Shown here one piece after another: positions 3,588 to 26,244 of a DNA stretch of 64,000 nt. The notes below the pieces were generated by a model. It had not been told where the DNA came from. It saw only the letters and a program-made list of their open reading frames with translations, and did not search any database. A program made the translations under genes and the position numbers. Every line of letters starts with the position of its first letter. Within the stretch, counting starts at the first letter, position 1. This DNA comes from a bacterium (lineage in GTDB: Bacteria; Hinthialibacterota; Hinthialibacteria; Hinthialibacterales; Hinthialibacteraceae), in the NCBI GenBank assembly GCA_041946805.1, contig JBHGBC010000002.1:82354-146353 (forward strand), read 5' to 3'.

Positions 3588-4298
3588 TCAAGCCGGGGGC
3601 CAATATCGGTCCCGGTGGGCCTCGAATTCCTCGATGGCGAGGTTCAGTTCATCCGGGGTTCCCATGTCGAGCCAATGGCCCGTAAAGGGGTAGACCGCAA
3701 CCCGTTCGCCGGCCGCCAACAGGCGGTGCATCAGGTGATCGAAGCCGAACGGTTCGCCGCGGGGAATGTAGTCGAGGATCCGCGGCTCGAAGATGTAGAC
3801 GCCCATGCTCACGTCGTAGTCGAACTCGGGTTTCTCCTGGAATCCGGTGATCCGCCGGTCCGCGCCGTAAGTGATCACTCCCAGCGCCAGGCGGACATGC
3901 CGCTTGCAGGTCCCCACCGTGGCGATCGCGCCGCCGCGGCGGTGGGTTTCATACAGATCGCGGTAATCGAGATCGGTCAACAGGTCGCCGTTCATGACCA
4001 GGAACGATTCATTCAGGCCGGAAATCAGGGTCAGGGGTGCGATGGTATTGAGGGGTTTGTCCTCCAACGAATAATCGACGCGGATGCCCAGGCGGGAGCC
4101 GTCGCCCATCACGGCCATGATCAGTTCCGCGTGGTAGCCGACCGAGATGGTGATGTGATCGAAGCCCCGCCAGGCCAGCTGGCGGATGACGACTTCCAGG
4201 ATGGGCTTATCCCCCAGGGGAACGAGGGGCTTGGGCAGGACCAGGGTGTAGGGAAAGAGGCGCTGGCCCCGGCCGCCCGCCATGATGATCGCGCGCAT
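3588..4298 (-). CDS. Sugar-1-phosphate nucleotidyltransferase (NTP_transferase family)
   Basis: N-terminal MRAIIMAGGRGQRLFPYTLVLPKPLVPLGDKPILEVVIRQL, the G-rich nucleotide-binding loop of glucose/mannose-1-P nucleotidyltransferases. 236 aa. Confidence 0.8.
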   Translation of the reverse strand: MRAIIMAGGRGQRLFPYTLVLPKPLVPLGDKPILEVVIRQLAWRGFDHITISVGYHAELIMAVMGDGSRLGIRVDYSLEDKPLNTIAPLTLISGLNESFLVMNGDLLTDLDYRDLYETHRRGGAIATVGTCKRHVRLALGVITYGADRRITGFQEKPEFDYDVSMGVYIFEPRILDYIPRGEPFGFDHLMHRLLAAGERVAVYPFTGHWLDMGTPDELNLAIEEFEAHRDRYWPPA

Positions 4299-4526
4299 GA
4301 ATCCCGCTTCCTTTCACGAGGTATGATACGTTCTTGGTTCCCTCCACCACCGGTCGGATTTGCCCAAAGGCCCAGCCAAGAACGGGTGAAGTATAAGGGC
4401 CGGGCGGGGATAAATCCACCCGGAGCGATGGCAGAGGAGGAATCACCACCCGGGTATGGAAAGTTGTCTGTATCTGAATGGCCGGCGAGAAGCGCGGAGA
4501 TTCCTAACGAATTCCTCCCCGAGGGG

Positions 4527-4550
4527 AATCCATGTGTATAGACATGGATT
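4527..4550. promoter_or_regulatory. Perfect 9-bp inverted repeat with 6-bp spacer (aatccatgt-gtatag-acatggatt) in a divergent promoter region
   Basis: Seen directly. Lies between the divergently transcribed nucleotidyltransferase operon (-) and the antitoxin-like/VapC pair (+). Candidate operator for a dimeric regulator (possibly the TA complex itself). Confidence 0.4.
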
Positions 4551-4741
4551 TTAACCTGCGGTAAAAAAAACCTTACCAGCAATGTGTTGATCATCCCACG
4601 ATTGATAAGACTGATTTGTAAATTAATTTTCTGTAAAAAATCACTTGACAATTCCTAGAACCGGATGGGGAAATAAAAAGGAGAGGAATTGAAATAGGGG
4701 TGCTGGATAGATTCAAAGCGGGTACGCCAAGGAGGTTCCTG

Positions 4742-5728
4742 ATGAGCAATAAACAACTCCCGCTCTTGATGATTGAATTGGAAGGGCCGGGTATCGGGCC
4801 GGGACGCATGACCGTGTCGCAACTACTCTGTTTGCTGGAAAACTTTGGCAAAGTACTGTTACGAACCGGCCAGGTTCTCGCCGGGGAGAGCCATAGCACC
4901 CGCAAAGGCCCCAAAACCAAGCGGCTCAAGGAATCGATTGACCTCCAACTCGTTCAACTGACACATGGCAGCCCTACGACCGTGCTTGGTTTCGATCGTG
5001 GAGTGCAGATCGATTTTCCAGAAATGGATGATGGTGAATATATTCTTGAAACCACGCTCCAAGGACTCACCGCAATTCAAAATCCGGATCATCCCTTACC
5101 TGCCGGTGTGGACCGGGGAGTTTTACTCGCTTGGCGAGAGTTAGGCCTCCTCTTTCGCAAAAGATGCAATCGAATTTTATTTTCTCTAAATAACCGCGCA
5201 ATTCCGTTACGGATTAAATATACCCCCGCGGGATTCGAACAGATTCAGAAGCGTATTCGAGGTCCCGAACTCAACCTTCGTACAGTCGAGGGCAGGCTTT
5301 TGATGACGGATTTCAAAGAATACGGCACCCGTTGCCGGATTCACCCTCCGATCGGCGATCCCATTATTTGCCTGTTTGATGAAGACCAGAAAGAGGCCGT
5401 TTTGGAAAATATTCTCCAATATGTGCGGATCGAGGGAGAAGCCCAAGAAGACTCGATTTCCAGAAAAATTACAAATATAAAGATCCGCGATATTGAAAGA
5501 ATAGAGGATATGGAGGTCGATGAGAAAAACATCCCAACGGGTGAACCCTTACCGTTCGATTTCTGGAAATCCTGGACGATCGAAGAACTCGCGGAAGCGC
5601 AAGGAGTCATTCCCGTTACGGATGTGACAGCCCTTTTGGGAACATGGCCCGGGGAAGTGGACGATGGTTTTGAGGAATTTATCCAAGACTTGAGGCGGCA
5701 AAATTCGATTGGAGAAAATAACCCGTAA
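4742..5728 (+). CDS. Hypothetical 328-aa protein with a C-terminal antitoxin-like tail (DUF2281/VapB-like motif …LLGTWPGEVDDGFEEFIQDLRR) and a large N-terminal domain of unknown function
   Basis: ATG at 4742 is preceded by a strong SD (aaggagg, 7 nt spacer). The ORF track's 4700 start is GTG without SD. The stop overlaps the VapC start (TAATG at 5725-5730). The C-terminal ~40 aa resemble the toxin-binding tails of small antitoxins partnered with PIN toxins. The N-terminal ~280 aa have no similarity I can recognise. Lies in a low-GC islet. Confidence 0.65.
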   Translation: MSNKQLPLLMIELEGPGIGPGRMTVSQLLCLLENFGKVLLRTGQVLAGESHSTRKGPKTKRLKESIDLQLVQLTHGSPTTVLGFDRGVQIDFPEMDDGEYILETTLQGLTAIQNPDHPLPAGVDRGVLLAWRELGLLFRKRCNRILFSLNNRAIPLRIKYTPAGFEQIQKRIRGPELNLRTVEGRLLMTDFKEYGTRCRIHPPIGDPIICLFDEDQKEAVLENILQYVRIEGEAQEDSISRKITNIKIRDIERIEDMEVDEKNIPTGEPLPFDFWKSWTIEELAEAQGVIPVTDVTALLGTWPGEVDDGFEEFIQDLRRQNSIGENNP

Positions 5729-6128
5729 TGGTAGCGAAACTCATCTTGGATACCAACATTGTATCGTACCTCATGAAGAGGCACTCTTTCGGTCAAAAAT
5801 ATTTGCCACACCTCTTGGGTAAGCTTTTGGCGATCAGCTTCATCACGGTGGGGGAACTTTATGTCGGGGCGGAAAAAGACAAATGGGGAGAAAGAAAGCG
5901 CCTTCATCTCCAGCCATGCTCAAAAACTATGTGGTGATTCCTTATGATGATGGCATCGCGAAGGAGTTTGCGCGAATTTTTGTCAATCGGATGCGGTTGG
6001 GTAAGCCCATTTCATTTTCAGACGCCTGGATATCGGCCTGTGCTGTACGGCATGATGTACCTTTGGTTACACACAATGCGATACACTTTGAGTCCATACC
6101 AGGATTACGGATTATTACTGAGCCATAA
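5728..6128 (+). pseudogene. vapC: VapC-type PIN-domain toxin, split by a +1/-1 frameshift near 5910-5920 (frames 5728..5937 and 5883..6128)
   Basis: N-terminal part MVAKLILDTNIVSYLMKR…ITVGELYVGAEKDKWGERKRLHLQP, with the conserved first acidic residue (LDTN). C-terminal part in another frame: MLKNYVVIPYDDGIAKEFARIFVNRMRLGKPISFSDAWISACAVRHDVPLVTHNAIHFESIPGLRI, the canonical PIN VLPFD / D-x-x-IAA / LVT-N motifs. The shift falls in an a/g-rich stretch (ggaaaaagacaaatggggagaaagaaagcgcc). Either a real pseudogene or a sequencing indel. Confidence 0.65.
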
Positions 6129-19692: not shown

Positions 19693-19966
19693 GATATAGG
19701 CCATCAAAGACGGTGAAGAGGAGTAGTAGGCGTTCCCACGGGATGGAGAGAGCCGGTGGTTGGTGCGAACCGGTTCCCGCGAATGCCGAACTCGCCTCGG
19801 AGTCGCCTCCGCGAAGCCCGGAGATCCGGGTGGTAGTCGAGGCCGGGACGCGACCGTGACATCGCGGAAACGAGGGCGGCGCCAACGGCCGCCGAACCAG
19901 GGTGGTACCACGGGGAAACCGAAAACGAACCTCGTCCCTGACACGGGACGGGGTTTTTTGTTTTTA
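19693..19966 (+). promoter_or_regulatory. T-box riboswitch leader (Leu specifier CUC) with intrinsic terminator, upstream of leuA
   Basis: AGAGAG box and GGUGG distal-loop motif. Candidate specifier GAA-CUC-G (Leu codon + purine). T-box sequence ccaGGGTGGTACCACGG (consensus AGGGUGGNACCGCG; UGGU matches tRNA-Leu discriminator A). Overlapping terminator cctcgtccc-tgacac-gggacgggg + TTTTTTGTTTTT (19929..19966). Confidence 0.7.
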
Positions 19967-20033: not shown

Positions 20034-20189
20034 GTGTTGGGTTTAGGCAGCGAAGAGAGCGACCTGAGCGACCTTAGCGACTTGGGTTGGAAGCCGAAAA
20101 GCCGAATGGGAACGCTAAGCACAATCAATCCGCCGGCGCGGGGCACGGATCACCGCCCGGCCAGAACGGAGAAACGCAATCATGACTGA
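20034..20189 (+). other. Possible upstream ORF (~51 codons, GTG start, SD ggaaggagg) overlapping the leuA start (ATGACTGA). Contains 3x tandem 9-nt repeat agcgacctg/agcgacctt/agcgacttg (SDLSDLSDL)
   Basis: Strong SD 8 nt before GTG 20034. Stop TGA overlaps the leuA ATG. Tandem repeat at 20058..20085. Coding status unverified. Confidence 0.3.
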
Positions 20190-21726
20190 GAAAATCATAA
20201 TCTTCGATACGACGCTGCGGGACGGGGAGCAATCGCCCGGCTTCAGCATGAACATGAAGGAAAAAATCGAGTTCGCGCAGCAGCTGAAGCGGCTGAACGT
20301 GGACATCATCGAAGCCGGATTCCCGATTTCGTCGCCCGGGGATTTCGACTCGGTGAAGGCCATTGCCCAACAGGTGGAAGGGCCGCAGATCTGCGGGCTG
20401 GCGCGGGCGCTGGAGAAGGACATCGACCGCTGCTGGGAAGCGGTGCAGTACTCGAAACGGCCGCGCATCCACACCTTCATCGCCACCAGCCAGGTGCACA
20501 TGGAGAAGAAACTCAAGAAAACGCGGAAAGAGGTGCGCGACCTGGCGGTGCAGGCGGTCCAGCATGCCCGGAAATACACGGACAACGTGGAGTTTTCGAC
20601 GGAAGACGCCGCGCGCACGGAGCGGGATTACATCTGCGAGGTGGTGGAGGCGGCGATCGACGCGGGAGCCACGACCATCAACATTCCCGACACGGTGGGG
20701 TATTCCAATCCGTGGGAATTCGGCGATCTCATCGCCTATATTTTCGAGAAGGTCCCCAACGTGCATCAGGCCATCATCAGCGTGCACTGCCACAACGATC
20801 TGGGGCTGGCGGTGGCCAATTCGCTGGCGGCCATCCGCAACGGGGCGCGGCAGGTGGAATGCACCATCAACGGGATCGGCGAGCGGGCCGGCAACGCCTC
20901 GCTGGAAGAGACCGTGATGAACATCAAGACCCGGCAGGATTTCTTCCCGTTCCACACGGACGTGAACACGGAGCAGATTTATCCCGCCAGCCGCATGCTG
21001 ACGCGCTTCACGGGCATCGCGGTGCAGCCGAACAAGGCCATCGTGGGGGCGAACGCCTTCGCGCACGAGGCGGGCATCCACCAGGATGGGGTGCTCAAGG
21101 AGCGGACGACGTACGAGATCATGCGGCCGTCGGCGGTGGGGTGGACGGGCAGTTCGATGGTGCTGGGCAAGCATTCGGGGCGGCACGCGTTCGTCGCGCG
21201 GCTCTCCGAGCTGGGCGTCACCCTGGAGGGGCCGGCGCTGGAGAACGCCTTCAACGCCTTCAAGGAACTGGCCGACCGCAAGAAGACCGTTTTCGACGAG
21301 GACCTGATCGCCATCGTGGACGAGCAGACGCGGAGCGTCGAGCAGGCGCGCTTTGTGCTGCAAGACCTGTTCATCAAGATCGGGCCGGACATGAAGCCGT
21401 CCGCGACGGTGCGCATCCAGGCCAACGGGGAAACGCTCGAAGGCAGCGGGACGGGCGACGGAGCGCTGGACGCGGCGTTTTCGATCATCAAGCAGCTGAC
21501 CGGCATGCAGGAAGCGGTGCTGGTGGATTACAGCGTCGGAGCGGTCACCGTGGGAACGGACGCGCAAGGCTCGGCGCGGGTGGTGCTCAAGAAAAATAAC
21601 CGGGAAGCGGTGGGCCGCGGGACGGACACGGACGTGATCCGGGCCAGCGTGAAGGCGTTCCTCAACGCGGTCAACCGCCTGTGCACGGCCGCCGAGCGGG
21701 AGAAGGAAGTTACGCCGTCGGTGTGA
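20182..21726 (+). CDS. leuA: 2-isopropylmalate synthase
   Basis: [24 protein letters not shown]…[16 protein letters not shown]… conserved throughout. 514 aa with C-terminal LeuA dimerisation/regulatory domain. Confidence 0.95.
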
Positions 21727-21756
21727 CGGCCTCCCATCCATCGGATTGCATCATTT

Positions 21757-21788
21757 CCCGGGGGTGTTCGAAAGGATGCCCCCGGGGG
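21757..21788. terminator. GC-rich hairpin (cccggggg-N15-cccccggg) between convergent leuA and methyltransferase genes
   Basis: 8-bp G/C stem. Weak U-tract (gtttgtaaatg). Possible bidirectional terminator. Confidence 0.3.
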
Positions 21789-21808
21789 TTTGTAAATGAA
21801 TTTACAGA

Positions 21809-22474
21809 TCATAAATCAGGTATTAAAAGGCCCTGGATGTGGGTTTTTAAAACAGGTTTTGTATGGTTCGAATAAGTTGGCCAGGTAGGTTGATAATCGT
21901 CCACTTCATTTCCCCACTGTGTCCAATGATTTCTTTTACCCCGTGCAAAGAGTTCAAGATATGGACCTGGACTACAAGATTCGATAATGGAATATAGTTC
22001 ATCTGGTTTCCGGGAATGTTCTCGTTTTTGCGCACGAATGATATTTACTTGTTTGCGGCCAGGGGGAAGTGTACGAAGATGACCACGCACACCAAATAAC
22101 ACTAATTCAGTTGTATTTCTGAAATAAAAACCAACCCCACGGCCATCTGGTCCTCCATCTTTTCTTATCTTATGCCAAACCAGGTTTGTTTTATAAATAT
22201 ACCCCCAAGATTTCATAACTTCTAAACCTTCTAACAGTAATGCATTAGGTACCCAGAGGTATAAATGACTTTGATCGGCTGACACAGAACATATAGGAAG
22301 ATTTTTTATTATATCGAGTTTCAATGTTTCATAGCGGGATAAACGCTTATGTTCAGGGGCCATTTTCCCCGTTCGATTAACAAATTGCCAAGGGGGATCC
22401 GCTAGTATTGTACCAAATTTCTGCCCATTTATTGTTTTTAATAAATCTTCTGAAATTTCATCTAATATTTTCAT
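21809..22474 (-). CDS. DNA methyltransferase, MT-A70 family (DPPW motif; N6-adenine/N4-cytosine beta-class)
   Basis: ILADPPWQF (motif IV DPPW), …RYETLKLDIIKNLP…LYLWVPNA… typical of MT-A70-like bacterial MTases. Start codon overlaps the stop of the upstream endonuclease gene (ATGA at 22474). Low-GC DNA. Confidence 0.75.
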   Translation of the reverse strand: MKILDEISEDLLKTINGQKFGTILADPPWQFVNRTGKMAPEHKRLSRYETLKLDIIKNLPICSVSADQSHLYLWVPNALLLEGLEVMKSWGYIYKTNLVWHKIRKDGGPDGRGVGFYFRNTTELVLFGVRGHLRTLPPGRKQVNIIRAQKREHSRKPDELYSIIESCSPGPYLELFARGKRNHWTQWGNEVDDYQPTWPTYSNHTKPVLKTHIQGLLIPDL

Positions 22475-23064
22475 TATTCATCCTCAATATATAACTTTCG
22501 GGTAATTCCGAATATCAAGATAGGACATCCGCCACCGCCACCACCCTCTATTCTTGGTAATAATCTGCTCATATGAGTAGTTGAAGTTCCATATGATTTG
22601 CCTCTTCCAATCGAATCAAATATTTCTTGAAGTTCATCACAACGAGTAATTATTATGCCAATACTGATTGCTCTTAGATCAAACAAGAGTCTAAAATTAT
22701 TCAAATCACGGTCAAAAAATGGATCCTTGTTATTCCATTCAATTTCTAGAGCTATGCGGTTTTTATAGCAATCAATTTTGTGTGTCGGAGTTTCCATCGC
22801 ATGGTCATCAACCACAACTTTCGTTGAAAAATCTTTTTCTTGCCATCCTCGAGCATATAAAAAATGATCAATGAATTCCGATATTTTAGATTTTCGACCC
22901 CCACCGATGGTTATCCAACTCTTATAAAACCTGAATTTCATTAAAACTTCAATCAAATCATTCCACTCATTTTGGAAATCATTTTCTAGAATTGCCGAAG
23001 CATGTTTCCATTCATGAATCTCGTAATTTTCTTGAATATATGATGGAAATCTTTCTACAGTCAT
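22474..23064 (-). CDS. Type II restriction endonuclease, BglII/BstYI-like fold
   Basis: …IALEIEWNNKDPFFDRDLNNFRLLFDLRAISIGIIITRCDE… parallels the BglII catalytic core (…EVQFSNYPFLLNNTVRSELF…KVAIIITKG…). 196 aa. Translationally coupled to the MTase. AT-rich promoter region 23065-23170. Confidence 0.55.
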   Translation of the reverse strand: MTVERFPSYIQENYEIHEWKHASAILENDFQNEWNDLIEVLMKFRFYKSWITIGGGRKSKISEFIDHFLYARGWQEKDFSTKVVVDDHAMETPTHKIDCYKNRIALEIEWNNKDPFFDRDLNNFRLLFDLRAISIGIIITRCDELQEIFDSIGRGKSYGTSTTHMSRLLPRIEGGGGGGCPILIFGITRKLYIEDE

Positions 23065-23169
23065 TCTCTACCCAAAATCTCGTGAAAATTTGTTCACTTT
23101 TTCATTATAACAAAAAAAACCTATAATTAATACTCCCATAAAAAAATTCTCCAAAAAAATTATAACTAT

Positions 23170-26100
23170 CTACAAATCCACCACATACGTCGTGAACGGC
23201 GCGGCGCCGTCGGAGTTGTAGTGGTGCTCCTCGCGGCCGCCGGGATATTGCTGGCGGACCGGATTCAGGTACTTGCGGTTGGCGCGGACAAACAGGAAGC
23301 ACACCGGGCCGCGGCGGAGAATCTTGGTCTTGAGAAATTGCTCCGGCTCCAAGACGTCCTTGCCCTGGGCCTCGGGGGCCAGGAACTGGATGGTCCCGTA
23401 TTGGAAAAACACGTGCGGCGGGCCGAAGAAATAGGTGTACGGCGTGGAACCCGCCTCATGCAGATAGCGGGCGATGCGGGTCCATTCATCGAGCAGTTGA
23501 GGCTTGGCCTGGATCTGATGGAAATAGCGGTGCATGCCCAGTACAAGGATCAATACCAAGGCCAGGGCCGTAAATCCGGCGCGGGCGCGCCCGGACCATT
23601 GGCAAATCCCTCCCAAGTGGTTCAACACCCCTTGCAGCACCGGCGCGGCGATCAGTATCAGGAGGGGAATCAGGCCCACCAGGCGCTGGTAGGCGGGGGC
23701 GTGATCGGTGAGGGCGCTGCCCGCGATCACCGTGACCACGCTCCAGTAGAGGAGCAGGCGGGCCGCCGGGTGGCGTAACATGGTGAAGAGCATCAGGAAG
23801 CCCACGGTAAACAACACGGCGGGGATGGGATCGAGCATCCCGCCGTGGCGGCTGTTGATCAGGTAAGGGCTATGGTCTTCGTGGGTGATGGGCGCCAGGA
23901 AGCTGCGCTCGAACTGATGCCGCACGATTTCGGCGAGGGAGAGGTCGGCGGGATAATCCCGTAGGATCAGCTCGCGGCCGCTCTTGGAAAAGAGGCTCAC
24001 GCTCTGGGCGCGGGAGAAGGCCGATCCCGGCGCGGCGAGGAAGGTCCCCGCCAGGGGCGCGATTCCCACCCAGAAGGCCAGCAGGTACGCGAATACGCTG
24101 GTGATCAGCGAACGGAAGCGGAGGGCGCGGGTCAGCCACAATAAAATCAGCGAAGACAAAATCAGGGGGGTCAGCAGTTTGGTGGCCTGATAGGACAGTT
24201 CGCCCACGGCGGTGAGCAATCCCGCGTAACAGAGATACCGGCTATCTTCTTGCAATCCGCGCGCCAGGCAATAGAGGACGGCCACGGTGAACAGGATGGT
24301 TTGATTGTACCCGATGCCAACGCGGGAAAAATGCACCGTGTAGGACGAGACGGTGAACAGAAAGACTGCGAGCACCGCCGGCGCGGGCCGCAAAAACCGC
24401 CGGGCCAGAAGATAAAACACGGGGATGGCGGCCAGGGAGATCAGCGCCCCCGTCAGGCGGACGCCGAACAGATTGCCGCCGAACAGCCACATGCCCCACG
24501 AGGGGATGAGATAAAACAAGTAGGGGATCTGGTACCAGCCCAGGTCGAAGAAGTTCCAGTTGCCGGCGTCACGGAGGCGCAGGGCTTGCAGGGCCACTTC
24601 GCCTTCATCCCCGTGCACGTCGGTGGGGATGGAAGTGGAGCCGATGGAATACAGGCAGGCGCCCAGCAGCACGATGAGCGCCACGGCCGTGTTGCCCCAA
24701 TACTCCGCCACGCGGGAGGGCGCATCGGAAGCGGACGGCGCATCCGGGGCGTCCCGGTCCGGGGAGGGATCTTTCGGTAAAGATACCGGAAACGCGAATG
24801 TCAACGGCCCGATCCGCAGCAGGCCCGGCTCGAAATAACCTTTGCGTTCAGGACGGGGGAAATAACGGAACAGCAAGGCCAGTGAGAATCCCCAGGCAAT
24901 CATGGGCCAATACCACGGCCAAGGGCCGCCCACGGCAAATCCCCGGACATGGAAATATTGGCAAAGCAGAGGGATCAAGGGGAATAGAATCAAGATCAAG
25001 GTTTGACGCTTCGTGAAGGGAAATGGAATGATCCCGGCGAGGGACTGCCACCGGCCGCGGGGAAGGTAGGCGTCCGCGGCGTGGCGCAGGGTGAAGAGCA
25101 ACAACAGCGCGCAACCGAGCCAATAAGTCAATCCTGGGCGGTGGCTGGGCGAAGCCGCCGCCAGGGCGTGAGCATGGTAGGTAATGGCGAACGCCAGCGC
25201 GTAGGCTGTCACCAACGCGGCGCGGACCCTGGGACCTCCCGGAGTGAAGCGGGAACTCAGCCACCAGGCCAATCCCGCCGCCAGCAGTCCCACATAGGCA
25301 TTGAAAAGCGGAAATCCAGACGATGAGGCAGCCGGAGCCTGAACCGCTGGTTCACCGGGAGTCGCGGGCGGCGCGGCCGGCGGGGGAAACTTGGCCTGCA
25401 CGAGGCACAAGAACAAGTTCGCTTCCTGAAAGAATTCCACGGCCTGGATGAAGTTGAGTTGTTTTCGGAATACTTTGAGAGAGCCCTCGGGAGTGAGTTC
25501 CTGGATTTGCTGCTGGTCGCCGTCGGCGATGAGGACCGAGCCGGTGGGCAGCGGCGTCAGCTTCACGGGGTGGTTGAATCCCCGGTATTCTTTCTCGATC
25601 TGGCCGGAGGGCCGGACATCCAGAAGGCGGTGGTTGTCGAAGTCGGAGATCAGGGTGTTGCCGTTGGGCAGGCGCAGGGCGTCCATGGGCTGCGTGAGGC
25701 CCTGCTCGTAACTCCAGGCCAATTGGCCGTCTCGGGTGACTTCGAGGATGGCGCCGGCCTGGGCGTCGCACACGAGGAGGTTGCCGTTGGACAGCAAATC
25801 CGCGTCGACGGGGCCCTGGAAAGGATACGGAACATTCTCCTGGAATCCGGTTTCCTGGTTATAAAAAAAAACCCGTTTGCCCGGGCGGGAGGTTAAGAGA
25901 AAAAGACCCGGCTCCAGATCCAGGACATCGACATCGTTCAGCGGCTCGAAGGAGGATTTGAACACCTGCACGCCGTCGCCGGAGTAGATGAGGAAATCCC
26001 CGGAAAGCGTGGTCACCGCGAAATGGGCCCGGGCCGGGATGACGGCTAGGTCGGTGGGGCTGTCAGGCACGGGATAAAGCCCCTGTGGCCCCCCCCGGGC

Positions 26101-26244
26101 ATCCAGAACCACCACGCCGGATTTTGTGGGAAAGCCATCCACCAGCGCCTCGGATTGCGCGCGGGAGATTGCGGGAAACACCAGCCCGAGCCCGGCCGCG
26201 GCCGCCACAATCAGCAGCCGGGACGCAGAGAATTTGTTCTCCAT
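23170..26244 (-). CDS. 1024-aa membrane protein. Signal peptide, NHL-repeat/beta-propeller domain, and a polytopic GT-C-fold (PMT_2/ArnT-like) glycosyltransferase domain
   Basis: N-terminal repeated blades (…LSNGNLLVCDAQAGAILEV…, …LPNGNTLISDFDNHRLLDV…, …LPTGSVLIADGDQQQIQEL…). C-terminal ~650 aa have >12 TM helices with the …PTDVHGDEGEVALQAL… loop typical of ArnT/PMT-type GT-C enzymes. Confidence 0.65.
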   Translation of the reverse strand: MENKFSASRLLIVAAAAGLGLVFPAISRAQSEALVDGFPTKSGVVVLDARGGPQGLYPVPDSPTDLAVIPARAHFAVTTLSGDFLIYSGDGVQVFKSSFEPLNDVDVLDLEPGLFLLTSRPGKRVFFYNQETGFQENVPYPFQGPVDADLLSNGNLLVCDAQAGAILEVTRDGQLAWSYEQGLTQPMDALRLPNGNTLISDFDNHRLLDVRPSGQIEKEYRGFNHPVKLTPLPTGSVLIADGDQQQIQELTPEGSLKVFRKQLNFIQAVEFFQEANLFLCLVQAKFPPPAAPPATPGEPAVQAPAASSSGFPLFNAYVGLLAAGLAWWLSSRFTPGGPRVRAALVTAYALAFAITYHAHALAAASPSHRPGLTYWLGCALLLLFTLRHAADAYLPRGRWQSLAGIIPFPFTKRQTLILILFPLIPLLCQYFHVRGFAVGGPWPWYWPMIAWGFSLALLFRYFPRPERKGYFEPGLLRIGPLTFAFPVSLPKDPSPDRDAPDAPSASDAPSRVAEYWGNTAVALIVLLGACLYSIGSTSIPTDVHGDEGEVALQALRLRDAGNWNFFDLGWYQIPYLFYLIPSWGMWLFGGNLFGVRLTGALISLAAIPVFYLLARRFLRPAPAVLAVFLFTVSSYTVHFSRVGIGYNQTILFTVAVLYCLARGLQEDSRYLCYAGLLTAVGELSYQATKLLTPLILSSLILLWLTRALRFRSLITSVFAYLLAFWVGIAPLAGTFLAAPGSAFSRAQSVSLFSKSGRELILRDYPADLSLAEIVRHQFERSFLAPITHEDHSPYLINSRHGGMLDPIPAVLFTVGFLMLFTMLRHPAARLLLYWSVVTVIAGSALTDHAPAYQRLVGLIPLLILIAAPVLQGVLNHLGGICQWSGRARAGFTALALVLILVLGMHRYFHQIQAKPQLLDEWTRIARYLHEAGSTPYTYFFGPPHVFFQYGTIQFLAPEAQGKDVLEPEQFLKTKILRRGPVCFLFVRANRKYLNPVRQQYPGGREEHHYNSDGAAPFTTYVVDL

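Follow-up and report, generated by a model that had tools for sequence, protein, structure and literature searches.

What kind of genes make up the low-GC block that separates leuA from a glycosyltransferase gene in an Omnitrophota genome, how did they come to lie there, and which DNA sequence might they act upon? In the window, the whole 64,000-nucleotide stretch of DNA that was analysed, GC content falls to 0.33–0.42 over positions 21750–23250, against 0.60–0.68 in the flanks. The open reading frame list places two overlapping minus-strand frames of 196 and 221 residues between leuA (20182..21726, plus strand, with HMGL-like and LeuA_dimer domains) and the gene for a PMT_2/GT39-type glycosyltransferase of 1024 residues (23170..26244, minus strand), both neighbours being confirmed by domain matches; an exact look-up of the window's LeuA protein gave no record. 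The original prediction had taken the pair for a compact Type II restriction–modification (R-M) islet, in which a BglII-like endonuclease is coupled to an MT-A70/DPPW methyltransferase, and the peptides that it cited (EIEWNNKDPFF, IGIIITRCDE and DPPW) are all present in the translations. The islet itself is evident, with 35% GC in a 60% GC genome; its limits, first placed at 21757 and 23170, become slightly narrower upon comparison with the empty site of a relative. The foreign block thus delimited spans 21787..23169 (1,383 bp, GC 0.353 versus 0.598 for the remaining window) and consists of the R-M cassette with short non-coding ends. We consider it very probable that this is a functional, horizontally acquired two-gene Type II R-M cassette devoid of a mobility gene, featuring coupled expression, protection by N6-methyladenine (m6A), restriction at a GATC-core site and recent entry into the genome.

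The first gene (22474..23064, minus strand) encodes a restriction endonuclease of the BglII/BstYI family. Its 196-residue product matches the Pfam family Endonuc-BglII (PF09195) over the entire profile (1-163/163; E=1.8e-45; 155 bits, the curated cut-off being 26). A phmmer search of the PDB returned no match, BglII being undetectable by sequence, and a profile search matched only BstYI in the PDB. The nearest solved relative is BstYI (PDB 1sdo/1vrr) and not BglII; the assignment to the family stands. The structural model of the endonuclease matches BstYI, BglII and BamHI, all three of which have the PD-(D/E)XK core fold in common. At about 18–20% sequence identity, D98-X8-E107-X-E109 aligns with D119-X8-E128-X-Q130 of BstYI, and K113 with BstYI K133. 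These four predicted catalytic residues (D98, E107, E109 and K113) are invariant in 80/80 endonuclease orthologs; an intact active site accompanies the BglII/BstYI/BamHI fold. The third active-site residue is Glu, as in BamHI, while both BglII and BstYI have Gln; details of catalysis or recognition may differ as a result.

The second gene (21809..22474, minus strand) encodes a 221-residue protein that belongs, as originally proposed, to the MT-A70 family: it covers the Pfam profile PF05063 in full (1-172/172; E=9.7e-30; 104 bits, cut-off 23.9) and matches the PADLOC Type II methyltransferase model MTase_II with E=1.2e-86. NCBIfam models matched neither this protein nor the endonuclease. Residues ~17-194 align with solved ciliate chains named 'MT-a70 family protein' (e.g. 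7f4r, E=1.5e-22) and with METTL3 (E=1e-15). The ciliate chains occur in entries that also hold MTA9, and we regard them as MTA1, the enzyme that makes m6A in ciliate DNA. The LADPPW sequence is invariant in 75 orthologs, and its DPPW (motif IV, residues 26-29) lies N-terminal to the SAM-binding region, the permuted β order. The DPPW motif, together with the literature, points to N6 of adenine in DNA as the likely target of this enzyme.

The two genes are tightly linked. At the junction GAA-TAA-TG (22470..22478, minus strand) base 22474 belongs both to the TAA that ends the endonuclease gene and to the ATG that opens the methyltransferase gene; the overlap and close coupling had been recognized correctly, but the junction reads TAATG instead of the ATGA given originally. 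Upstream lies an AT-rich leader of 105 bp (23065..23169, minus strand), in which an extended −10-like element, TGTTATAAT, occupies 23112..23104, with the ATG 40 nt further on. A generic sigma-70 scan gave neither a significant promoter excess nor a significant promoter signal, and it is the sequence of the leader and a pattern search that make TGTTATAAT a candidate promoter element. The endonuclease gene would be transcribed first, probably from this leader, and the methyltransferase would be translated off the same mRNA via the 1-nt overlap. Downstream of the methyltransferase stop codon, a 22-nt tail (21787..21808, minus strand) still belongs to the transferred block. Just beyond the right block boundary there is a host hairpin (21757..21786; CCCGGGGG, a 14-nt loop and CCCCCGGG), which is also present in the empty-site relative. 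This hairpin is probably the leuA terminator, now serving the convergent methyltransferase gene as well.

How common is such a gene pair? The pairing of a BglII-type endonuclease with an MT-A70 enzyme had been considered unusual, an opinion that did not withstand comparison. In 78/80 genomes chosen as species representatives, which span 12 phyla or more, the MT-A70 gene lies directly downstream of the endonuclease gene, and the junctions in orthologous loci almost always fall within −17 to +5 nt. On plasmids and viral contigs, close MT-A70 homologs adjoin other BglII/BstYI-family endonucleases, and GenBank (PGAP) already names both proteins of the present genome. Moreover, MT-A70 relatives have already been placed in 'BglII R-M systems' by Iyer, Zhang & Aravind (2016; PMC4738411). 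The bacterial MT-A70 clade of these systems (PMC4738411; Bujnicki et al. 2002) comprises the same kind of gene pair. Neither of these two accounts gives specificity or biochemistry, and what the present copy contributes beyond them is a new host phylum and some detail at the level of populations. In the literature searched, no specificity or structure is published for the bacterial MT-A70/BstYI-like pair. The original assignment to compact Type II R-M pairs is borne out by family matches and conserved pairing, and the cassette is an ordinary R-M system of a very widespread, already annotated type.

The target is likely RGATCY, protected by m6A, as several indirect lines of analysis suggest. 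One of them is structural, since BstYI, the nearest solved structure, recognizes RGATCY. BstYI, BglII, BamHI and OkrAI all read a GATC core flanked by R...Y. Another line comes from word counts. Of the NGATCN classes counted in 519 kb of host flanks, RGATCY shows the strongest depletion, although a weak one (O/E 0.77), and AGATCC/GGATCT is the lowest non-palindromic word there (O/E 0.92). However, CGATCG is more depleted than RGATCY (O/E 0.54-0.56 in pooled host flanks of 456-519 kb), and the avoidance of RGATCY is weak, with a general avoidance of palindromes as confounder; in the window alone, GATC-core hexamers are not avoided. The third line is provided by related systems. A plasmid endonuclease of Acinetobacter, 49% identical to the present one, has its three-gene layout of endonuclease, HTH regulator and Dam-like methylase in common with the system of A. 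baumannii A118, and a Dyadobacter endonuclease is 61% identical. Experiments on the A118 system demonstrated that it makes RGm6ATCY, restricts incoming DNA and is blocked when Dam methylation is present (PMC10287943). We likened it to these relatives by family and layout; the Acinetobacter TR3 endonuclease has Ser at position 176, and the mutated K176 of the A118 protein does not map onto its numbering. MCA0246 of M. capsulatus Bath, an adenine methyltransferase gene of 651 bp, has RGATCY as its REBASE assignment, and this sequence is methylated in that organism (PMC13390346). The likeness of MCA0246 to the present methyltransferase is one of size and annotation only, and no paper in the literature searched names both MT-A70 and RGATCY. 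RGATCY in R. blasticus was discarded as a specificity link, because the mark there is m4C.

A less probable, yet serious, alternative is that the same type of R-M system acts on another site: AGATCT, GGATCC, plain GATC, YGATCR (TGATCA or CGATCG) or even a non-GATC sequence. Against it speak the R...Y context read by all four structural neighbours, the symmetric adenine that GATC offers to a DPPW enzyme expected to modify adenine, the fact that the indirect links lead to RGm6ATCY systems, and the overall rank of the RGATCY class as the most depleted. If RGATCY is indeed the site, the MT-A70 enzyme would methylate its adenine at N6 on both strands, and an endonuclease homodimer built around D98, E107, E109 and K113 would cut unmarked incoming DNA at R^GATCY, leaving 5′-GATC ends; another GATC-core site would be treated in a corresponding way.

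Comparison with characterized systems shows both the similarities and the limits. BstYI is not known to be blocked by Dam-type m6A, nor to have an MT-A70 protein as its own methyltransferase. The BglII/M.BglII (AGATCT) and BamHI/OkrAI (GGATCC) systems use N4-cytosine methyltransferases, whereas the partner here is a DPPW MT-A70 enzyme. EcoRI-type operons resemble the present one in layout: ecoRIR precedes ecoRIM on the same strand and there is no C protein, although the enzyme families are unrelated. In the EcoRI system, internal methyltransferase promoters or antisense RNAs are known. An endonuclease-first order without a controller protein sits uneasily with protection of a new host during establishment, a point that we counted on the negative side. 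The A118 RMC system resembles the present pair in having a BglII/BstYI-family endonuclease and adenine methylation in a GATC core as protection, but it combines a Dam-like methyltransferase of ~390 residues with an HTH controller, in a gene order and orientation unlike the tandem pair here (PMC10287943).

How did the cassette reach its present location? It had been described as a mobile, horizontally acquired islet, and the GC deviation and the empty site in a close relative agree with this. In that nearest relative (L088, MAG GCA_013177805.1) synteny is identical and the site is empty: homology ends at the glycosyltransferase stop codon (23170) and restarts at 21786, with the block standing in place of ~230 bp of unrelated spacer. 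A second genome, L116, has flanks that are 99.3% and 99.8% identical to those of L088, yet it carries the cassette. Its endonuclease and methyltransferase genes are 99.0% and 98.6% identical to those of the window, while its flanks are only 85% and 92% identical to the window. Informative sites in L116 define a single window-like patch, with one end ~45-57 nt within the glycosyltransferase gene and the other at the leuA stop codon. The 22-nt tail adjoins the methyltransferase gene in L116 and is missing from L088. We considered whether the L116 mosaic might be an assembly chimera and rejected this explanation, as the intervals in which alleles switch are just 12-15 identical nt and L116 has its own cassette allele, different from that of the window and recurrent in 16 contigs and in phage-like contigs. 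Stretches of 12-15 nt are, we assume, shorter than the k-mers typical of assemblers. Taken together, the comparison of empty and occupied alleles indicates that entry into the Omnitrophota genome was recent, and that the cassette moves among related genomes through homologous recombination of short patches, with exchange in the 3′ ends of both flanking genes.

Other routes of mobility left no trace in the material covered. A search for terminal direct or inverted repeats and for target duplication found repeats at chance level only, which is not what a classical mobile element would display, and integrase and transposase are absent from the 25 most frequent of 181 Pfam families in 138 neighbouring genes. 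A 12-nt direct repeat (21713-21724 and 23205-23216) was dismissed as an insertion signature: it lies 35-63 nt outside the junctions, within coding 3′ ends, and its left copy is simply what the glycosyltransferase gene reads in its donor-type allele. At the DNA level, similarity to the nearest cassette does not extend beyond the two ORFs. The 130 nt upstream of the endonuclease gene at ~75 loci have nothing in common, neither promoter nor C-box nor cassette end, and the endonuclease ATG of several hosts directly adjoins or overlaps the host gene that precedes it.

The question of activity was illuminated by an unexpected set of sequences. Three independent metagenome contigs (L117-L119) possess a phage-type module of DnaB, SSB, C5 MTase and RuvC-like resolvase, together with the methyltransferase gene but without that of the endonuclease. 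Their methyltransferase DNA is 100% identical to the L116 allele and is still joined to the 22-nt tail, the 3′ spacer, the hairpin and ~58 nt of leuA. Capture of a protective methyltransferase by a phage-like element implies restriction pressure; such methyltransferase-only contigs are the outcome expected from selection to escape an active endonuclease, and activity in vivo is therefore likely. It seems improbable, by contrast, that the endonuclease has lost its activity and that what persists is an orphan or epigenetic methyltransferase next to a dead partner. Decay does occur, as in one locus (L063) where the endonuclease has G186D and a read-through C-terminus and the methyltransferase gene is absent; 23/61 close methyltransferase homologs in viral contigs are orphans, and MCA0246 is reportedly not near a predicted endonuclease (PMC13390346). 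However, in the window both ORFs are full length and none of the catalytic or family-invariant residues has been lost, a second lineage carries the cassette at 99% identity, and there is the phage-like capture itself.

Two further explanations appear very improbable. That the MT-A70 protein makes m6A in RNA, beside a nuclease of unrelated function, might be surmised from the JGI name of its homologs ('N6-adenosine-specific RNA methylase IME4') and from METTL3 being among the best solved relatives, but it conflicts with the near-obligate pairing with a restriction endonuclease fold across phyla, the strong match to Type II methyltransferase models derived from REBASE, the presumed MTA1 chains as best solved relatives and the assignment of the bacterial enzymes to R-M systems in the literature. 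Equally doubtful is an ancestral block deleted in the relative, for which one could invoke the single empty-site genome found and the different synteny of more distant relatives, but which disagrees with the 25-point GC deficit, the 99% identical cassette between lineages with 85-92% identical flanks, the recombination patch with both ends mapped and the fact that hundreds of other species have the same cassette at loci unrelated to this one, as in the case of the Geobacter cbi operon, within which it lies.

Overall, as an R-M system the functional, horizontally acquired cassette adds little, being automatically annotated, present in hundreds of species and of a pairing already published. It nevertheless corrects the belief that BglII-family nucleases normally pair only with N4-cytosine methyltransferases, since in this clade MT-A70 is the standard partner. 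The Omnitrophota alleles offer a clean natural example of a defence cassette without a mobility gene spreading via flanking homology, and the phage-like contigs one of a cognate methyltransferase captured by a phage-like element. Prokaryotic pairs of MT-A70 and BglII-type endonuclease represent the outgroup radiation of eukaryotic METTL3, METTL14, METTL4 and MTA1, according to one study (PMC4738411). Among prokaryotic relatives of the eukaryotic m6A writers, the bacterial MT-A70/BstYI-like pair is the closest. We give about even credence to the broader view that the locus may record stages in the spread of a selfish, gene-only R-M cassette in the little-known phylum Omnitrophota, from entry between genomes differing by 8-15% to phage-like methyltransferase capture with a 58-nt leuA scar from this chromosomal site, and that the pair may come from an uncharacterized, very widespread bacterial sister group of METTL3/MTA1, possibly combining a sequence-specific MT-A70 enzyme of ~190 residues with an m6A-sensitive nuclease of BstYI fold and BamHI-type E-x-E active site. 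Any convenient ortholog of the pair would make a useful minimal model.

The gene pair between leuA and the glycosyltransferase gene is a real, intact Type II restriction-modification system, recently acquired, and belongs to a type that is very common and has been annotated before. In the ORF listing the endonuclease (196 aa; 22474..23064, minus strand) matches the whole Pfam Endonuc-BglII model (E=1.8e-45), and the methyltransferase (221 aa; 21809..22474, minus strand) matches the whole MT-A70 model (E=9.7e-30) as well as REBASE-derived PADLOC Type II methyltransferase models (E=1.2e-86). On either side lie leuA (20182..21726, plus strand) and the gene for a 1024-aa PMT_2/GT39-type glycosyltransferase with NHL repeats (23170..26244, minus strand). 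Along the window, GC falls to 0.33-0.42 in the block from 0.60-0.68 on either side (overall, 0.353 versus 0.598 for the remainder of the window). ORFs, Pfam matches and composition thus agree with the original prediction of a gene pair in a low-GC block beside these two genes. The ATGA stop/start overlap that it also described is not there: the junction reads GAA-TAA-TG-AAA, with one base common to both genes, and since the endonuclease stop is TAA, the overlap is TAATG. Upstream of leuA, an Rfam T-box leader was found at 19704-19942 (plus strand; 104 bits, gathering score 93).

The idea that the block is an islet found strong support in a related genome. The window's glycosyltransferase marks the host as a member of the Omnitrophota: its best relative (79% identical) comes from the Candidatus Omnitrophica MAG GCA_013177805.1 (locus L088), where the gene order is the same (pheA, prephenate dehydrogenase, DUF5060, SurA-like, glycosyltransferase, convergent leuA), the cassette is absent and a 291-bp spacer alone separates the glycosyltransferase gene from leuA. 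Homology between L088 and the window ends at the glycosyltransferase stop codon (23170) and picks up again at 21786, which delimits the foreign block as 21787..23169 (1,383 bp); L088 has some 230 bp of unrelated spacer in its place. Neither terminal repeats nor a target duplication was found. A 12-nt direct repeat (21713-21724, CGCCGTCGGTGT; 23205-23216, CGCCGTCGGAGT; 11/12 matching) was rejected as a target duplication: it brackets the cassette, but both copies fall within coding sequence of the neighbouring genes, 35-63 nt away from the junctions, and it was judged to be chance plus donor-allele sequence.

How the cassette moves among close relatives is illustrated by a second occupied contig, L116; occupied and empty alleles are both present in one Omnitrophota lineage. 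Metagenomes SRR29307520 and SRR31359994 contain the Omnitrophota lineages. L116 carries the cassette at the same site, although its flanks are nearly identical to those of the empty-site L088 (99.3% and 99.8%); they are 85% and 92% identical to the window's flanks, and the cassette genes are 99.0% (endonuclease) and 98.6% (methyltransferase) identical to those of the window. When L116:4246-5764, L088:11050-11400 and window 21724-23216 were compared, informative sites in L116 proved L088-like up to about 4246, window-like over 4259-5748 and L088-like again from 5764. The window-like stretch begins 45-57 nt before the end of the glycosyltransferase gene, takes in the two cassette genes with the spacers on either side, and reaches the leuA stop. 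An assembly chimera could yield such a mosaic, but is unlikely, because the allele switches fall within intervals of 12-15 identical bases and the L116 allele is found in 16 contigs. The mosaic instead bears the signature of a short homologous-recombination patch (about 1.5 kb) that brought the cassette from a window-like donor, the crossovers lying near the 3' end of each flanking gene (the glycosyltransferase gene and leuA).

Outside this lineage, DNA similarity between the window and the cassette next closest to it (L094, whose endonuclease is 82% identical) is limited to the two ORFs, and the regions upstream of about 75 orthologous cassettes have nothing in common. The 138 genes neighbouring cassettes represent 181 Pfam families, mostly housekeeping, with no integrase or transposase among the 25 commonest. 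In Geobacter anodireducens and related contigs (L002-L007), a cassette of the same two genes (76% identity to the window's endonuclease, 72% to its methyltransferase; GC 0.45 versus 0.64-0.69) lies in the middle of the cobalamin (cbi) operon, on the same strand, between tetrapyrrole methylase genes. Elsewhere it directly follows nrdB (L042, L048, L081, L083), a RimO-like TRAM protein gene (L044, L068, L075) or a HIT protein gene (L031, L038), and in some of these genomes the endonuclease ATG abuts or overlaps the host gene stop. Such recurrence behind one housekeeping gene in several genomes may reflect vertical descent inside clades, a preferred target, or spread through the flanks as seen in Omnitrophota.

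The endonuclease looks active, judging from its conserved catalytic residues. A PDB search with the single sequence gave no match; a profile built from 29 family members matched BstYI (E=2e-4). The AlphaFold model from the 29-member alignment is confident (pLDDT 92.3, pTM 0.89), and Foldseek relates it to BstYI (TM 0.71, E 1e-8) and BamHI (TM 0.56), with no match to BglII below E 0.001. In the profile alignment, D98-X8-E107-X-E109 lies opposite BstYI D119-X8-E128-X-Q130, and K113 opposite K133 (BstYI-DNA complex: PDB 1vrr). The active site is a hybrid: its D-X8-E-X spacing is that of BglII and BstYI, whereas its third residue, unlike BstYI Q130, is Glu (E109), as in the BamHI structure. D98, E107, E109, K113, T140-R141 and S161-T-T-H164 are conserved in all 80 species-level orthologs, and therefore the loss of catalytic residues that would have refuted the original prediction can be dismissed.

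The methyltransferase carries DPPW at residues 26-29, within an LADPPW stretch invariant in 75 orthologs (family length, 213-224 aa). In amino-methyltransferases a DPPW motif IV marks an N6-adenine enzyme, and because motif IV here is DPPW, this indicates that the protein is probably such an enzyme. Its best solved relatives, aligned over residues 17-194, are 'MT-a70 family protein' chains whose entries contain MTA9 as well (E=1.5e-22), with METTL3 next (E=1e-15). This bacterial group is sister to the eukaryotic m6A writers, and our literature search turned up no published biochemistry for it. With the Pfam assignments, the BstYI-like fold and the MT-A70/DPPW methyltransferase, the structural description of a Type II pair holds.

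What does not hold is the claim that the combination is unusual. Database relatives of the endonuclease number more than 8,000 (the top 120 at 71-99% identity), and a one-genome-per-species scan gave at least 577 confirmed matches. The best 80 of these, which we examined, are 65-78% identical and come from at least 12 phyla, among them Desulfobacterota, Planctomycetota, Alpha-, Beta- and Gammaproteobacteria, Bacteroidota, Chloroflexota, Bacillota, Spirochaetota, Verrucomicrobiota, Nitrospirota, Ignavibacteriota, Actinomycetota, Synergistota and one CPR member. Cultured carriers found by the scan include Paracoccus sediminis DSM 26170, Defluviimonas denitrificans DSM 18921, Stagnihabitans tardus and Geobacter anodireducens. 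An MT-A70 gene (59-74% identical to the window's) lies directly downstream in 78 of the 80 loci, and junctions in orthologous loci are nearly always -17 to +5 nt. As to the other two, one contig ends short of the downstream position; in L063 (3983-4774, 'Candidatus Azophilus lithoversatilis') no methyltransferase gene follows the endonuclease, which carries G186D and a read-through tail of 67 aa; it has the look of a remnant in decay, its activity lost after the methyltransferase had gone. A BglII/BstYI-type endonuclease with MT-A70 is thus the norm for this clade and already on record: GenBank names the source genome's proteins 'BglII/BstYI family type II restriction endonuclease' (MFB3784934.1) and 'MT-A70 family methyltransferase' (MFB3784933.1).

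Over a wider range, partners have been swapped repeatedly. On plasmids such as Xanthomonas pXfc37, methyltransferases 62-71% identical to the window's adjoin a different BglII/BstYI-family clade, 28-32% identical to the endonuclease. Of the 61 close methyltransferase homologues on IMG/VR contigs, 38 lie beside an endonuclease of the BglII/BstYI family, at widely varying similarity (28-74%), and 23 are orphans. Across plasmid loci L091, L092 and L093 and viral loci L120-L185, methyltransferases are 58-72% identical between hosts, and their endonuclease partners, in tandem or convergent, range from 28% to 74% identity. Conversely, window-clade endonucleases (49-61% identical) also partner Dam-like methyltransferases and an HTH regulator.

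A recognition site with a GATC core of some kind is quite probable; RGATCY itself, with m6A as the mark, is slightly favoured. BstYI is the closest enzyme of solved structure, and R-GATC-Y sites are read by it and by the three other structural neighbours (BglII, BamHI, OkrAI). The A. baumannii A118 system (endonuclease H0N27_10830), which was compared by layout and shares with the 49-61% identical endonucleases the endonuclease/HTH regulator/Dam-like methylase arrangement, makes RGm6ATCY, restricts transformation and is blocked by Dam (PMC10287943). In M. capsulatus Bath, RGATCY is methylated and REBASE predicts this site for MCA0246, a 651-bp adenine methyltransferase likened to our family by size (PMC13390346). 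Over 519 kb of host flanks, no class has a lower observed/expected ratio than RGATCY (0.77); among non-palindromic NGATCN words the minimum is AGATCC/GGATCT, at 0.92. CGATCG, however, is depleted more than the RGATCY palindromes in the pooled flanks, which counts against RGATCY, and the window itself exhibits no site avoidance (108 RGATCY and 568 GATC sites). Excluding 21757-23170, GATC is very frequent in the window (one site every 113 bp, 568 in all), there is little AGCT and CTAG, and GGGCCC is strongly depleted (8 observed versus 22.6 expected), being also the most depleted palindrome in the pooled flanks. These word biases may reflect other restriction-modification pressures.

The cassette resembles EcoRI-type operons, in which the endonuclease likewise comes first and there is no controller protein. 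Its 105-bp AT-rich leader contains an extended -10-like element, TGTTATAAT (23112..23104), 40 nt before the ATG; a generic promoter scan did not rise above background.

Three phage-like contigs from three samples (L117, L118, L119) have the methyltransferase gene and lack the endonuclease. The gene sits behind a module of DnaB, SSB, C5-methyltransferase and RuvC-like resolvase that matches phage protein families. In L117:3006-5806, L118:1-806 and L119:678-1966, the DNA match (to window 22474..21669) has its start precisely at the ATG of the methyltransferase, in front of which stands a GC-rich GGAGG site of unrelated sequence. The match continues past the stop codon and the 22-nt tail, across the host hairpin, and into the 3' end of leuA for about 58 nt; at the DNA level the gene and the L116 allele are 100% identical. 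The attached leuA fragment shows that the element's gene was, to all appearances, copied from this chromosomal locus, and the whole looks like capture of a host methyltransferase by a phage-like element from this exact locus. A mobile element with the protective half alone is the outcome that escape from an active endonuclease would select, and the capture is the best, if indirect, evidence of the system working in nature. The cassette family is known and automatically annotated; slight added value comes from having the locus in cleanly distinct occupied, empty and phage-captured forms, and from its kinship with the eukaryotic m6A writers.
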